Virus record (IMG/VR): IMGVR_UViG_2859810971_000007 | Length of the DNA: 64,000 nt | Reading direction: 5' to 3' (one strand) | From: a virus | Taxonomy: Duplodnaviria > Heunggongvirae > Uroviricota > Caudoviricetes | Shown: positions 11,568 to 46,923 of the stretch, piece after piece | Position numbering within the stretch: position 1 is the stretch's first letter | Layout: the number at the start of each line of letters is the position of its first letter | The notes under the pieces: generated by a model | The model's input: the letters and a program-made list of their open reading frames with translations, nothing else | Told to the model about the DNA's origin: nothing | Database searches by the model: none | Position numbers and translations under genes: made by a program

Positions 11568-11642
11568 TGGAGCGGGCAGCGGGAATCGAACCCGCATCAT
11601 CAGCTTGGAAGGCTGAGGTAATAGCCATTATACGATGCCCGC
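11568..11642 (-). tRNA. tRNA-Gly (anticodon TCC)
   Basis: 75 nt; cloverleaf folds by hand; anticodon loop CCTTCCAAG; identical to plus-strand copy at 46849-46923. Confidence 0.8.
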
Positions 11643-11645
11643 ATA

Positions 11646-11720
11646 TGGTGCGACTACCGGAATCGAACTGGTGACCTACTGATTACAAGTCAGTTGCTCT
11701 GCCTGCTGAGCTAAGTCGGC
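11646..11720 (-). tRNA. tRNA-Thr (anticodon TGT), possibly defective
   Basis: Anticodon loop CTTGTAA; differs from the plus copy by loss of one G in the 3' acceptor strand (AGTCGC vs AGTCGGC), which unpairs the acceptor stem. Confidence 0.5.
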
Positions 11721-11722
11721 GC

Positions 11723-11799
11723 TGGCCCACCACCGAGGACTCGAACCTCGCACCGTCAACTTAGAAGGTTGATGCTCTATCCGGATGAGCTAGTGGTGG
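11723..11799 (-). tRNA. tRNA-Arg (anticodon TCT)
   Basis: 77 nt; anticodon loop CTTCTAA; acceptor CCACCAC/GTGGTGG; identical to plus copy. Confidence 0.75.
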
Positions 11800-11800
11800 T

Positions 11801-11877
11801 TGGTGGCCCTTGCTGGACTTGAACCAGCGACCTGGCGATTATGAGTCGCTCGCTCTGACCAACTGAGCTAAAGGGCC
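11801..11877 (-). tRNA. tRNA with CAT anticodon (ileX-like, Ile2 or Met)
   Basis: 77 nt; anticodon loop CTCATAA; sequence close to E. coli ileX as recalled. Confidence 0.75.
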
Positions 11878-11961
11878 GGAGGCAGAATAATAACCATATG
11901 TCATCACATCTGCAAACTCATCTGATCACCAGCACGTTTAACGTCCTGTGCCGTTTTTCAG

Positions 11962-11990
11962 GTATAAAAAAAACCGCATAAAGCGGGCTC
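11962..11990 (-). terminator. Candidate tR'-like intrinsic terminator downstream of Q-like gene
   Basis: Minus-strand short hairpin CCGC..GCGG followed by T8 run, between Q-like gene and tRNA array. Confidence 0.4.
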
Positions 11991-12066
11991 TTTCAAATGT
12001 CCATGTCTGCTATTCGCCTCGCGGTACAGCTTTGCGATGCGTACAAGAATTGAAGCAGTTTTTACG

Positions 12067-12621
12067 TCAAAAAGCAATAACTTTTTTCTCTATACCAAAA
12101 GCCATAACCATTGGTTTGTGCAAAATAAATTCTGCCACCTTTAGCCAATGCTCAATGCGTCTTTCACAGGTTCTTAAACTCCATTTCGGGTGTGCATCAT
12201 TCAGCAGTTCAGCCATTTTGCATTTGGTCATCCCCCGCCCCTCATACCGTTGCCGAAGGACGCTAATCAATCCTGGATGCTCTGCCAGCACCTCACTTAT
12301 GACCCGATCAATACATAACGCCTCTGCATCAGTACAATGCGCCAGCCAGCTCTTTTGCTTACCGTTAATCATATCCCGCAAAAAAGCCTCAAGTTCAGAC
12401 TTGTTCAGACCTGCTTTTTTCATCCTCCGGAGCGCCTCGTTAATTGCCGTTTTTGTCAGCTTTTTAGAGGTCAACATCAGGTTAAACATATTCCCCGTCT
12501 TACCGCCACCAATATACGACCAGCGCCCCCACATACGTAGTTTTCCCTGAATCCAGACACTTTCCAGCGTGGTGAGACGAAGGTGTTCTCCGCTTTTTCC
12601 TGTATTCGTTGGGTAAATCAT
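12067..12621 (-). CDS. Putative late-gene antiterminator (Q-like)
   Basis: 184 aa from MIYPTNTGKSGEHLRL; immediately upstream of terminator and tRNA array, the position Q occupies; family assignment by context. Confidence 0.45.
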   Translation of the reverse strand: MIYPTNTGKSGEHLRLTTLESVWIQGKLRMWGRWSYIGGGKTGNMFNLMLTSKKLTKTAINEALRRMKKAGLNKSELEAFLRDMINGKQKSWLAHCTDAEALCIDRVISEVLAEHPGLISVLRQRYEGRGMTKCKMAELLNDAHPKWSLRTCERRIEHWLKVAEFILHKPMVMAFGIEKKVIAF

Positions 12622-12908
12622 AAATATCCATCCTTTCTCCAGATTTCTTGTGTGCGAAAAACACCTTCTGCATGCATCAGGCGTAATTCTTCTTTGGTGT
12701 AATCGCTGGTTTTTACCCGCCCGTCGATTAAATCGTGGCACGAGCTACAGGCAATCGCTGCCTGCATATCGTGTGGCTTTATCGCTGTTCCGCACGTTCC
12801 CGCCAGTCGGTAATGCGCCAGCACAGACGTTTCCGGAGCGTGATTGCAGTAGCCAGGAATTCTGACGGTGCACATCTGCCCCCGCGCCGCTTTAAGTAAA
12901 TCCACCAT
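12618..12908 (-). CDS. YbcO-like (DUF1364) prophage protein
   Basis: 96 aa with Cys-rich motifs (MCTVRIPGYCN..., IACSSCHDLID) resembling DLP12 YbcO. Confidence 0.5.
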   Translation of the reverse strand: MVDLLKAARGQMCTVRIPGYCNHAPETSVLAHYRLAGTCGTAIKPHDMQAAIACSSCHDLIDGRVKTSDYTKEELRLMHAEGVFRTQEIWRKDGYL

Positions 12909-13507
12909 TACGCAAACTCCAGCAGCTGCGCGGCCACATTTTCGACTTGTTCCGGAGAGGAAAATTTACGGAACAGAATCCAGTTCCACAGCACATTCAG
13001 TACAGATTTATAAACCTGCTGAAACTCGGTTTCGTCCATATTCGCAAACGCGATAGATTTCGCCCGACACCCACGGCTACCGTCCGGATAAAAATGCTCG
13101 GTGTAAAATCCGGCCTGAATGGCTACCCACTCGCGGAAAGCCTCAAACGACTTTAGCAATGCCGTATCACGGGTTCTGCGTGTCGCAACTGTATTCAGAT
13201 ATTGCTCTGCGGCTTCGCTCAGAGCTGGCGTATGTTCCCGGCCTACTGATTCACACAGGTAATCAACGAAACCGGACACCAGTTTTCGTTCGCGAGGCGT
13301 GATCGCCCCACCGACCGGAGTCCAGTAATCGAAACCCAGTTGCAGGAGTTTGAAAAAACGCTTGTGGAATGCGTAGTTACGCACACGCTTAAAGTCTGCG
13401 TGTATCCACTCACCTATTTTGATTTGATGCAGAAAATCGCAACTCTCCGGCGTCGCCGGGAGAAGTAATCCGGAAGAGGTTTGTTTGACCAGTTGTATAT
13501 GTGCCAT
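12908..13507 (-). CDS. DUF1367-like phage protein
   Basis: 199 aa from MAHIQLVKQTSSGLLLPATPESCDFLHQIKIGEW; nin-region position. Confidence 0.4.
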   Translation of the reverse strand: MAHIQLVKQTSSGLLLPATPESCDFLHQIKIGEWIHADFKRVRNYAFHKRFFKLLQLGFDYWTPVGGAITPRERKLVSGFVDYLCESVGREHTPALSEAAEQYLNTVATRRTRDTALLKSFEAFREWVAIQAGFYTEHFYPDGSRGCRAKSIAFANMDETEFQQVYKSVLNVLWNWILFRKFSSPEQVENVAAQLLEFA

Positions 13508-13545
13508 CGGCTTTCTCCGGTGGCACGGTGTTACACAGCAGGAGT

Positions 13546-45492: not shown

Positions 45493-45746
45493 ACAACCAG
45501 ACAATGACTTTTACCCCTAAACAATTGCGTAAACACGCGCAGGAAATGCTGCGTCATGCTGAACAACTCGAAAAAACGGGCATAACAAAAGATGCTATCC
45601 GTAAAGATATGGTACCCGCGCTTCGGGAACTGATGCAGGCGAAGCATCGCGCACAGAAAGCAGTAGATGAGCTGGTGGACTGTGTGGCAGAGCTGGAAAC
45701 CAGAGTCGGAAAGTTTGAAAAACTGGTGCAGGAGGCGCTGCGCTGA
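45489..45746 (+). CDS. Hypothetical coiled-coil phage protein
   Basis: 85-aa ORF overlapping DnaB-like stop. Confidence 0.35.
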   Translation: MNNQTMTFTPKQLRKHAQEMLRHAEQLEKTGITKDAIRKDMVPALRELMQAKHRAQKAVDELVDCVAELETRVGKFEKLVQEALR

Positions 45747-45837
45747 TGCGCCATGAGTTTGTTTTGCCCTGGCTTGTGCGCGATCATTATGTCCCTGGTG
45801 GAAAGCCCGGGATAAAAATCACCGAACCGGAGAGTAT

Positions 45838-46041
45838 TTGATGAGCGTCAAAATTCAAACGATACCGGAACTGCTTATCCAGACACGAGGTAATATGACC
45901 GAAGTTTCACGAATGCTGAACTGTAATCGCGCCACGGTAAGAAAATATGCTGAAGATAAAGAGGGCAAAGGGCACGCCATTGTTGATGGTGTTCTGATTG
46001 TTCATCGTGGATGGGACAGGGGTAAAGACAGTGATGCGTGA
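45838..46041 (+). CDS. ninH: NinH-like protein
   Basis: 67 aa; ...[41 protein letters not shown] resembles lambda NinH. Confidence 0.55.
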
Positions 46042-46363
46042 TATTCAGCAGGTTCTTGAGCGCTGGGGCGCGTGGGTGGCTAATAATCATGAGGATGTGA
46101 CCTGGTCGTCCATTGCTGCCGGTTTTAAGGGATTAATCCCTTCAAAAGTAAAATCCCGCCCGCAATGCTGTGACGATGACGCGATGGTTATATGTGGGTG
46201 TATGGCCCGCCTTAACCGGAACAACAACGATCTACATGACTTGCTGGTTGACTACTACGTGTTTGGGATGACATTCATGACGCTGGCGCGGAAGCATGGA
46301 TGCTCAGATGGTTATATAGGAAAGAAGCTACAAAAAGCCGAGGGGTGGTGGAAGGAATGTTGA
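46034..46363 (+). CDS. quuD: Late-gene antiterminator Q (QuuD/phage-82 type)
   Basis: From [26 protein letters not shown]...[17 protein letters not shown], close to DLP12 QuuD as recalled; followed by terminator and late genes. Confidence 0.7.
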
Positions 46364-46501
46364 TGATGTTGGGTGTCCGGTTAGAAATGGACAAATATAT
46401 TGAACATCCCTGATGGTAAGGGGCGACTTTCTAGAAAATATTTTACGTACGTAAAAAACGGGATATTCTGTTAAGAGTGGTTGCTTCGCCACACAGCTTA
46501 A

Positions 46502-46525
46502 ACCCGCCTCCGGGCGGGTTTTTTA
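46502..46525 (+). terminator. tR'-like intrinsic terminator
   Basis: CCCGCC-TCCG-GGCGGG hairpin followed by TTTTTTAT. Confidence 0.6.
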
Positions 46526-46612
46526 TGCCTGAAAAACGGTACAGGACGTTAAACACGCTGGTGGTCAGATGAGTTTGCAGATGTGATGACATATGGTTAT
46601 TATTCTGCCTCC

Positions 46613-46689
46613 GGCCCTTTAGCTCAGTTGGTCAGAGCGAGCGACTCATAATCGCCAGGTCGCTGGTTCAAGTCCAGCAAGGGCCACCA
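46613..46689 (+). tRNA. tRNA with CAT anticodon (ileX-like, Ile2 or Met)
   Basis: 77 nt ending CCA; cloverleaf by hand; anticodon loop CTCATAA. Confidence 0.75.
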
Positions 46690-46690
46690 A

Positions 46691-46767
46691 CCACCACTAG
46701 CTCATCCGGATAGAGCATCAACCTTCTAAGTTGACGGTGCGAGGTTCGAGTCCTCGGTGGTGGGCCA
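46691..46767 (+). tRNA. tRNA-Arg (anticodon TCT)
   Basis: 77 nt; anticodon loop CTTCTAA. Confidence 0.75.
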
Positions 46768-46769
46768 GC

Positions 46770-46845
46770 GCCGACTTAGCTCAGCAGGCAGAGCAACTGA
46801 CTTGTAATCAGTAGGTCACCAGTTCGATTCCGGTAGTCGGCACCA
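46770..46845 (+). tRNA. tRNA-Thr (anticodon TGT)
   Basis: 76 nt; 7-bp acceptor stem GCCGACT/AGTCGGC; anticodon loop CTTGTAA; one A-C mismatch in T stem. Confidence 0.65.
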
Positions 46846-46848
46846 TAT

Positions 46849-46923
46849 GCGGGCATCGTATAATGGCTATTACCTCAGCCTTCCAAGCTGATGATGCGGG
46901 TTCGATTCCCGCTGCCCGCTCCA
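46849..46923 (+). tRNA. tRNA-Gly (anticodon TCC)
   Basis: 75 nt; anticodon loop CTTCCAA. Confidence 0.8.

Follow-up and report, generated by a model that had tools for sequence, protein, structure and literature searches.

The two tRNA arrays in this 64,000-nucleotide stretch of DNA (referred to as the window) are, very probably, paralogous lambdoid tRNA cassettes of two degraded Shigella prophages, in one of which the tRNA-Thr gene has suffered a real deletion and is likely to be a pseudogene, with both arrays having been passengers in the rearrangement of the locus. The window is Shigella chromosome, most likely that of S. flexneri judging from the matching loci, and its gene order and private frameshifts are those of CP026810.1. 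Pfam searches identified ipaH, pgl, ybhJ', ybhC and int, and the window contains five IS600, two IS2 and two IS1 copies. It carries two IS-riddled and heavily degraded lambdoid prophage remnants, one of them, prophage A, being Rac-like and carrying ydaT, DUF977, hok/sok and DUF1133 genes, and the other, prophage B, lying at att-lambda, adjoining ybhC. The arrays are also present in S. flexneri SFBU1023.

ARAGORN placed eight tRNA genes at the coordinates given in an earlier note made from the sequence alone, which had described arrays at 46613-46923 on the plus strand (array B) and at 11568-11877 on the minus strand (array A). No fold was rejected by ARAGORN or Rfam, with all eight genes scoring above the Rfam tRNA gathering threshold of 29 bits (Table 1), and the CAT-anticodon tRNA, implied by that note to read AUA, is tRNA-Ile2. 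The four genes of the cassette are separated by 1-3 nt, and pairwise alignment found arrays A and B to be identical at 310/311 nt with the missing G already reported as the sole difference. The inverted repeat, put at about 420 bp earlier, was measured in a repeat search of the window as arms of ~410 bp with 98% identity (11562-11971 and 46519-46929), and the similarity described as ending at the 3' end of tRNA-Gly stops ~5 nt beyond it. Upstream, the leader of ~95 nt between the terminator T-run and the first tRNA has five A/B mismatches (~95% identity), in agreement with the ~95% over ~80 bp claimed for these flanks.

Table 1. Positions of the tRNA cassettes, their neighbouring genes and signals, and nearby repeats in the window.
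Feature	Position	Strand	Evidence
Array B tRNA-Ile2 (CAU; ileX/ileZ-like)	46613..46689	+	ARAGORN; Rfam 70.5 bits; PGAP name for orthologue tRNA-Ile
Array B tRNA-Arg(UCU), phage type, argN-like	46691..46767	+	ARAGORN, Rfam
Array B tRNA-Thr(UGU), intact	46770..46845	+	ARAGORN; Rfam 69.8 bits; 7-bp acceptor stem in fold
Array B tRNA-Gly(UCC)	46849..46923	+	ARAGORN, Rfam
Array A tRNA-Ile2 (CAU)	11801..11877	-	ARAGORN, Rfam; same sequence as B copy (alignment)
Array A tRNA-Arg(UCU)	11723..11799	-	ARAGORN, Rfam; same sequence as B copy (alignment)
Array A tRNA-Thr(UGU), 1 G short in 3' acceptor strand, probable pseudogene	11646..11720 (ARAGORN 11647-11720)	-	Alignment, Rfam, fold
Array A tRNA-Gly(UCC)	11568..11642	-	ARAGORN, Rfam; same sequence as B copy
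Array B conserved leader, sigma-70-like site TTTGCA-18-TATTAT at 46574-46603	46519..46612	+	A/B conservation; consensus match
Array A conserved leader, same promoter-like site at 11916-11887	11878..11971	-	A/B conservation
Hairpin and T-run terminator (tR'-like) between Q and array B	46500..46526	+	Fold -18.9 kcal/mol, z -3.26
Terminator between DUF1133 gene and array A	11965..11990	-	Fold z -2.48
Q antiterminator gene (PF06530), prophage B	46034..46363	+	Pfam
DUF1133-family gene in Q position, prophage A	12067..12621	-	PF06576 E 5e-105; synteny
Class II holin, prophage B, first lysis gene 3' of array B	47216..47431	+	Orthologue annotation; PF04971
Holin gene of prophage A, 5' stump	10808..10891	-	Alignment
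Rz (lysis) gene tract	48658..49118	+	98-99% identity A-type vs B-type prophages (alignment); gene content
IS600 interrupted by IS629-like element	8228..10807	-	Repeats; Rfam ALIL pseudoknot; alignment
IS2 copy	19663..20993	-	Repeat search; Pfam content
Second IS2 copy, in PBSX-type terminase region of prophage B	51304..52633	+	Repeat search

Both cassettes hold the standard lambdoid position, with the late antiterminator gene, terminator, tRNAs and lysis genes in succession, and the same order (Q or DUF1133 gene, then tRNA-Ile, Arg, Thr and Gly, then holin) is annotated in the orthologous EIEC prophages. This supports the claim that a phage tRNA array is present twice, each time after a late antiterminator gene and terminator, although the more specific claim that each follows a Q gene stands for array B only: terminators are found at both, but the DUF1133-family gene before array A scored 25.1 bits against Phage_antitermQ (PF06530), under the cut-off of 26, and is therefore not a clear Q. 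Compared with EIEC, the array A terminator has a G-to-T change at 11973 that weakens it, and the prophage A holin is cut by IS600 at the identical nucleotide in all Shigella loci examined. The prophage B Q reads 109 aa in the window (and at locus L017) and 126 aa at all other loci compared, the shorter form arising because a G5 run reads as G4 at 46342-46345, which is probably an assembly error. The sigma-70-like site of array B ends 9 nt ahead of the first tRNA; it is a 9/12 consensus match, and shuffled sequence gives such matches equally often.

The lesion in the array A tRNA-Thr replaces GTCGGCACCA with GTCGCACCA, removing one G from the 3' acceptor strand and abolishing the C2-G71 pair, and the Rfam score is 55.9 bits compared with 69.8 bits for the array B copy. 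In RNA folding the intact tRNA-Thr keeps its 7-bp acceptor stem (-22.3 kcal/mol), whereas the stem is absent from the minimum free energy (MFE) structure of the deleted-G form (-16.2 kcal/mol, z-score -0.13), which is ~6 kcal/mol less stable and folds no better than shuffled sequence, and this bears out the unpairing claimed earlier. The E. coli ThrRS identity elements include G1-C72 and C2-G71, and a regular acceptor helix is required by RNase P and EF-Tu, all of which speaks against a working molecule. From its sequence and predicted fold we regard the array A tRNA-Thr as probably a pseudogene. It is still called as a tRNA by ARAGORN and Rfam, the remainder of the molecule is unaltered and the allele persists across many strains, so that a functional tRNA whose 6-bp acceptor helix has a one-base bulge, and which retains the discriminator A and CCA end, might be envisaged, but we think this unlikely. 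Neutrality accounts for the persistence, since redundant copies are present, and locus L020 has a second substitution that affects the damaged tRNA-Thr and none of the other three tRNAs, a pattern that relaxed constraint would produce. Loss of a pseudogenised tRNA-Thr would be tolerated, as two or three intact prophage copies are present in the same genomes and the host thrU should add another.

The deletion itself is genuine and has been passed down in a Shigella lineage. We found the deleted-G allele in 12 loci, some on short contigs of short-read-style drafts, from at least nine assemblies, and always within Rac-like A flanks, while all B copies, three EIEC orthologues and locus L006 retain the G. 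Alternatively, the duplicate arrays or the missing G might be artefacts of assembly or sequencing, and the source assembly does contain private one-base deletions (at about 8236 in an A run, and at 10903, 11104, 46341, 48019, 48645 and 49119) that frameshift Q, the 209-aa ORF, the lysozyme gene and Rz; these are probable assembly errors resembling long-read consensus errors. They occur, however, only in G, C or A runs of at least four, whereas the missing G sits in a GG dinucleotide, and both arrays are present with distinct flanks in many independent complete genomes. Furthermore, five complete genomes hold the deleted-G and intact alleles side by side, and a systematic error would strike both copies since their local sequence is identical. 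The artefact explanation is refuted by these observations and we give it almost no credence.

It had also been suggested that the inverted repeat might serve as a substrate for inversion of the intervening 35 kb. The relative orientation of the arrays does differ between Shigella genomes, being inverted in two (35 or 26 kb apart) and direct in five (9-11 kb apart), the arms are inverted and 98% identical over ~410 bp, and large inversions in E. coli O157:H7 are reported to arise by inter-prophage recombination (PMC8743559). Nevertheless, homologous recombination between the arrays is a very improbable cause, and this part of the suggestion is not supported as stated. Each array retains its own upstream gene and immediate downstream flank in 7/7 complete genomes examined, which argues that the arrays were not crossover sites, and among the loci examined the deleted G was never found in a B copy; its constant linkage to A flanks indicates that the site has been spared crossover and conversion since the deletion arose. 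The junctions instead map to IS600, to an IS3-family element and to a 460-bp Rz tract ~1.7 kb downstream, where the window switches from B-type upstream to A-type downstream sequence. At the IS600/IS629-like element the array A fragment is joined to a lambda-like terminase/head region; in other Shigella genomes this region comes after array B. The window also contains a 1331-bp, 100% identical inverted IS2 pair (19663-20993 and 51304-52633), which is a better inversion substrate than the arrays. Large prophage- and IS-mediated chromosomal rearrangements are described for E. coli O157:H7 and Shigella (PMC8743559, PMC8072062). The present locus is of this kind, as the two prophage fragments vary in orientation and spacing between strains and the junctions fall at IS copies and in a homologous prophage gene, but the tRNA arrays are not themselves crossover points.

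The cassettes are an ordinary feature of a kind already known. The ileZ-argN-argO cassette of Stx phages (933W, Stx2 phages and phage 2851) also lies 3' of Q and a terminator and 5' of late/lysis genes, with the same proposed role of supplying tRNAs for AUA and AGA, and Stx2 phage ileZ and argN share 88% identity with the window cassette over ~170 nt (leader end, Ile2 and Arg). In place of argO, the second Arg gene, the window cassettes have Thr(UGU) and Gly(UCC), and in contrast to Stx phages there are no toxin genes downstream and the carriers are defective prophages. Genes for tRNAs also occur downstream of Q in SfI, Sf6, ST64T, PS3 and P21, where they are thought to supplement rare codons, with SfI encoding Asn and Thr(UGU) and having ACA codons enriched relative to S. 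flexneri (PMC3636060). These share the position and tRNA-Thr(UGU) with the window cassettes, but are one- or two-gene sets with Asn rather than four genes with Ile2, Arg and Gly. The E. coli phages vB_EcoS-689R5, vB_EcoM-606R7 and PhiR47_1 have tRNA-Met/Thr/Gly arrays (93% identity over 81% of the cassette; annotated Lys-Met-Thr-Gly in PhiR47_1), with Lys(UUU) where the window has Arg(UCU), which shows that the cassette is swapped module by module. SFBU1023 has a further array of this Ile2-Lys-Thr-Gly variant.

Compared with K-12, the tRNA-Ile2 is identical to ileX at 69/77 positions with the same anticodon stem-loop and tRNA-Arg(UCU) shares only ~70% identity with argU, while the array B tRNA-Thr matches thrU at 74/76 and tRNA-Gly(UCC) matches glyT at 75/75 positions; the last two look like captured host genes. 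The array A tRNA-Thr differs from thrU in D-loop bases as well as in the missing G. We attribute the identity of the two arrays to strong constraint on tRNA sequence and to circulation of the cassette, as a module, among E. coli and Shigella prophages: the EIEC copies are identical too, Gly is the same as glyT and Thr is close to thrU. Local duplication was rejected as the cause.

The anticodons do correspond to AUA, AGA, ACA and GGA as the earlier note had claimed, but the codon argument is weaker than it implied. Counted jointly, these four codons reach 26-53 per 1000 in prophage genes and ipaH compared with 13.9 in the chromosomal genes of the window (a baseline of four genes only), a 2-4 times enrichment, with the smallest enrichment among phage gene sets in the late structural genes (26-27 per 1000) and the highest use in ipaH (52.6 per 1000; AGA 19.7). 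This usage by ipaH leaves some room for a domestication in which selection retains the cassettes and Ile2 and Arg(UCU) aid translation of AT-rich ipaH and invasion-plasmid genes. The arrays are intact inside heavily IS-eroded prophages, array A survives in five genomes as an island of 1.75 kb flanked by two IS elements, two records of the genome collection carry four arrays each, and the conserved leader contains the promoter-like site. We consider this explanation doubtful, though, as small fragments between IS copies may survive by chance, one of the four tRNAs has decayed, ileX, argU, thrU and glyT are K-12 counterparts of all four isoacceptors and are expected in the Shigella host, and ordinary E. 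coli phages have the same cassettes.

As prophage cassettes, the tRNAs would be transcribed from the promoter-like site of the leader and/or by antiterminated late transcription, and the transcripts then cut by RNase P and 3' processing. The cell would thereby gain additional tRNA-Ile2 (AUA), Arg(UCU), Thr(UGU) and Gly(UCC), for codons that are rare in host genes and commoner in prophage genes and ipaH. The inverted arrangement is one of several IS- and prophage-mediated states of the locus, in which the arrays are passengers rather than breakpoints.

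ARAGORN found exactly eight tRNA genes in the whole window, and as the earlier note had claimed these lie in two mirrored four-gene arrays, here called array A (minus strand, in a Rac-like prophage) and array B (plus strand, in a prophage at att-lambda), with all eight scoring 55.9–70.5 bits with the Rfam tRNA family model RF00005 (gathering threshold 29 bits). Alignment likewise bore out the near-identity of the two copies, as the sole difference between them is one G absent from the 3' acceptor strand of the array A tRNA-Thr. The leader of some 95 nt which runs from the terminator T-run to the first tRNA has five mismatches between A and B, similarity stops about 5 bases past the 3' end of the Gly gene, and a repeat search of the window recovered the arrays as arms of about 410 bp with 98% identity. 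Hairpin terminators upstream of both arrays are supported by RNA folding, and neither was listed in a consensus terminator scan. At window position 11973 (minus strand), a G-to-T change common to the Shigella loci examined shortens the stem of the terminator 5' of array A when compared with the orthologues in EIEC strains. Both leaders also contain a sigma-70-like site (TTTGCA-18-TATTAT; a consensus match only) ending 9 nt 5' of the first tRNA, from which the cassettes might be transcribed independently.

Positions of the tRNA genes of arrays A and B and of the ipaH gene in the window
Feature	Position	Strand	Method
Array B CAT tRNA	46613-46689	+	ARAGORN
Array B Arg(TCT)	46691-46767	+	ARAGORN
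Array B Thr(TGT)	46770-46845	+	ARAGORN
Array B Gly(TCC)	46849-46923	+	ARAGORN
Array A CAT tRNA	11801-11877	-	ARAGORN
Array A Arg(TCT)	11723-11799	-	ARAGORN
Array A Thr(TGT)	11647-11720	-	ARAGORN
Array A Gly(TCC)	11568-11642	-	ARAGORN
ipaH, 608 aa, NEL E3 ligase + LRR_TTSS (type III secretion LRR)	23323-25149	-	Pfam

The CAT tRNA is best described from its sequence as a tRNA-Ile2 with an ileX-type rather than a Met body, because 69 of 77 positions are identical to Escherichia coli K-12 ileX in alignment with the same anticodon stem-loop core (a single acceptor stem pair differs, U-A here and C-G in ileX, and pairing is kept). Orthologues are named tRNA-Ile by PGAP and the Stx-phage homologues are annotated as ileZ, which together with the likeness to ileX favours tRNA-Ile2 over an initiator or elongator tRNA-Met, the label given by ARAGORN. 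As a tRNA-Ile2 it would be expected to have C34 modified to lysidine by TilS and to be charged by IleRS. The Gly gene is identical to K-12 glyT (75/75) and the Thr gene matches thrU at 74 of 76 positions, the two differences lying in the D loop, while identity of the Arg gene to argU reaches just some 70%.

For lambdoid phages, cassettes of tRNA genes 3' of Q are textbook knowledge. They occur downstream of Q in SfI, Sf6, ST64T, PS3 and P21, where they are thought to supplement rare codons, and ACA is enriched in phage SfI relative to Shigella flexneri (PMC3636060). The tRNA models, position and phage homology all place the cassette found here amongst these lambdoid late-region cassettes, and it is a modular member of this well-known class because of its homologies to arrays in Stx2 and E. 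coli phages and the array variants present in S. flexneri SFBU1023. Stx2 phages carry an ileZ-argN segment 88% identical to the end of the leader plus the Ile2 and Arg genes, and three E. coli phages carry arrays 93% identical to the cassette, one of which is annotated Lys-Met-Thr-Gly. The same arrays were found in SFBU1023, which has four in total, three of them Ile2-Arg-Thr-Gly (with the deleted G in one of the three) and one Ile2-Lys-Thr-Gly, and the orthologous EIEC prophages have the same cassettes with tRNA-Ile, tRNA-Arg, tRNA-Thr and tRNA-Gly annotated by PGAP. We also note a Thr(UGU)-Gly(UCC) pair at positions 4192-4345 of a locus from Citrobacter braakii ATCC 51113 (L024), with the same Thr-Gly junction as in the Shigella cassette, which shows that this two-gene module also circulates outside Escherichia and Shigella.

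The window is a Shigella-type chromosome in which pgl, ybhJ' and ybhC are followed by a lambda-type integrase (Pfam), and it contains five IS600 copies (one with an IS629-like element inside it), an inverted pair of 1331-bp IS2 elements and two IS1 copies. Exact protein matches assign it to CP026810.1, private frameshifts included. The prophage at att-lambda runs from ybhC through int, replication genes, NinH, Q (PF06530), the terminator and array B to a class II holin, lysozyme and Rz. The Rac-like prophage has cI/cro-like genes, ydaT, DUF977, QueH, hok/sok, DUF1367 and YbcO, then a DUF1133 gene in the Q position, the terminator, array A and a holin stump. The earlier note had placed each array just downstream of Q and a terminator; this holds in full for array B and for the terminators of both, but the gene preceding array A belongs to DUF1133 and has sub-threshold similarity only to the Q family.

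Several other features of this stretch deserve mention. In the nin region of the Rac-like prophage, a hok/gef toxin gene is accompanied by a sok antitoxin RNA that scores 117 bits (window 14233-14408, minus strand). In the prophage at att-lambda, a primase-like gene (Toprim_2; 34181-36864, plus strand) has a weak Hint match and a LAGLIDADG_3 match followed by an AAA_25 helicase-like part, is split into ORFs of 505 and 405 aa, and has an IS3-family element after it; it may be an intein-containing primase/helicase gene that is frameshifted or mis-assembled. Further along on the same strand, isrK (40017-40093) lies beside a C4 antisense RNA (40118-40205; both Rfam), forming a P1/P7-type antisense immunity module upstream of Ash/Rha-family genes. 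In the chromosomal stretch 27067-30208, an IS1 copy (27628-28395) separates a truncated ybhD-like ORF from a 5'-truncated aconitase-family gene (ybhJ'), and as ybhH and ybhI of K-12 are missing, an IS1-associated deletion is suggested.

The claim that the missing G unpairs the acceptor stem of the minus-strand tRNA-Thr was upheld by RNA folding. The intact tRNA retains a 7-bp acceptor stem (-22.3 kcal/mol) which is gone from the minimum free energy structure of the deleted form (-16.2 kcal/mol, a loss of 6 kcal/mol), the latter folding no better than shuffled sequence (z -0.13). With Rfam, the array A gene scores 14 bits lower than that of array B (55.9 against 69.8 bits). Twelve fetched loci, drawn from nine or more assemblies and with short draft contigs among them, had the deleted allele, always within the array A flank. 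All array B copies, three EIEC orthologues and a Shigella-type contig (L006) have the intact allele. As five complete genomes contain the two alleles together, systematic sequencing error is ruled out as the cause of the missing G. An origin of the two arrays by local duplication or assembly collapse was likewise rejected, since both arrays with their distinct flanks recur across many independent genomes. The missing G is thus a heritable, lineage-specific Shigella mutation. The best reading is that the array A tRNA-Thr is probably a tolerated pseudogene, presumably neither matured nor charged, because two or three intact prophage cassette copies accompany the deleted one and the host's own thrU is presumably a further intact Thr gene in Shigella. 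In one comparison locus (L020) the damaged tRNA-Thr alone has acquired a further change, a substitution that is consistent with relaxed constraint on it.

Other single-base differences in the window have another probable origin. Private one-base deletions with respect to sister Shigella genomes were found at about 8236 (an A run), 10903, 11104, 46341, 48019, 48645 and 49119, all confined to G, C or A runs of four or more, and these yield apparent frameshifts in Q (cut from 126 to 109 aa by the deletion at 46341), a 209-aa ORF, the lysozyme gene and Rz. In a sister genome arranged in the same way, none of the four sites covered by its fetched locus (46341, 48019, 48645 and 49119) has the deletion. 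The private deletions are probably long-read homopolymer errors of the source assembly (CP026810.1), and pseudogene calls made from it need care, as such errors would create false frameshifts, for example in Q.

The earlier note had also proposed that the paired arrays might mediate inversion of the intervening 35 kb, and part of this proposal stands as array orientation is polymorphic between strains. A distance of 35 kb separates the divergent arrays in the window and CP026810.1; they are inverted but 26 kb apart in CP049606.1, and direct and 9–11 kb apart in CP182555.1, CP055138.1, CP026788.1, CP097831.1 and CP033510.1. The shorter interval in CP049606.1 reflects the loss of 8751 bp, which is the distance between two direct IS600 copies (window 32705-33976 and 41456-42727), with int', IS600 and then directly an IstB-like gene at the deletion point, and is consistent with an IS600-IS600 deletion. 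Breakpoints within the arrays did not survive scrutiny. In every arrangement examined, array A has DUF1133 on one side and the IS600-cut holin stump on the other, and array B has Q on one side and the B-type holin and lysozyme genes on the other; no exchanged flanks were found among ten B-anchored and ten A-anchored loci. The G deletion stays with array A and is never in a B copy, and this linkage together with the retention of own flanks speaks against crossover within the arrays. The rearrangement junctions lie instead at IS600, an IS3-family element and Rz.

These junctions can be followed in some detail. In the window, a lambda-like terminase region adjoins array A via the IS600 interrupted by the IS629-like element, and the same region is downstream of array B in two comparison loci (L016 and L019), the IS600-terminase junction sequence being identical in all three. 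In the window and a further locus (L018), the lysis genes of B are continued by late genes of A type (DedA, small terminase and portal_3), with the switch occurring within a 460-bp tract of Rz (window 48658-49118) that is 98–99% identical between the prophage types. Because the switch falls within Rz, the sequences point to a reciprocal exchange between the two prophages in this Shigella lineage some 1.7 kb or more 3' of the arrays and thus outside them. The holin of the Rac-like prophage is interrupted at one and the same nucleotide in every locus (window 10808, L016 ~4600 and L020 ~2790), with the stump joined to the IRL of IS600 in the window and to the IRR in L016 and L020; a simple IS-IS homologous inversion at this site fails as an explanation, as the stump meets opposite IS600 ends in different genomes. 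Rearrangement was driven not by the arrays but by IS600, IS2 and Rz, which are longer or equally good substrates, and the arrays are passengers for which no role in rearranging the locus could be demonstrated. Two published accounts describe IS- and prophage-driven rearrangement, and the locus is in line with these (PMC8072062, PMC8743559).

The codons ATA, AGA, ACA and GGA together amount to 13.9 per 1000 in the four chromosomal genes of the window, 26–27 in the late structural genes (the lowest amongst the phage gene sets), 42–45 in the early, nin and lysis genes, and 52.6 in ipaH, though these are small samples all taken from the window. This trend fits supplementation by the cassette tRNAs and yet is not specific to the late genes. 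The ipaH gene also has the highest AGA use in the window (19.7 per 1000); it lies between the Rac-like prophage and pgl in a region of about 39% GC which adjoins IS600 and IS2. We consider it unlikely, if conceivable, that the cassettes are domesticated remnants, with several promoter-bearing copies selected in Shigella while IS elements erode the prophages, the extra tRNA-Ile2 and tRNA-Arg(UCU) helping AT-rich virulence genes, for example ipaH and those of the invasion plasmid, to be translated better, and the Thr copy decaying where its isoacceptor is not limiting.

In the window, two decayed Shigella prophages therefore each carry a copy of a known lambdoid tRNA cassette. This is an ordinary and already known arrangement, and since RefSeq records of close relatives have the cassette genes annotated, they have little import beyond annotation. 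The locus is, however, a compact example of how Shigella prophage remnants are reshuffled by IS600, IS2, an IS3-family element and Rz and not by the tRNA repeats. Loss of the single G from the array A tRNA-Thr provides a stable lineage marker within Shigella that is easy to type, and it illustrates cleanly how a tRNA gene decays when redundant copies exist.
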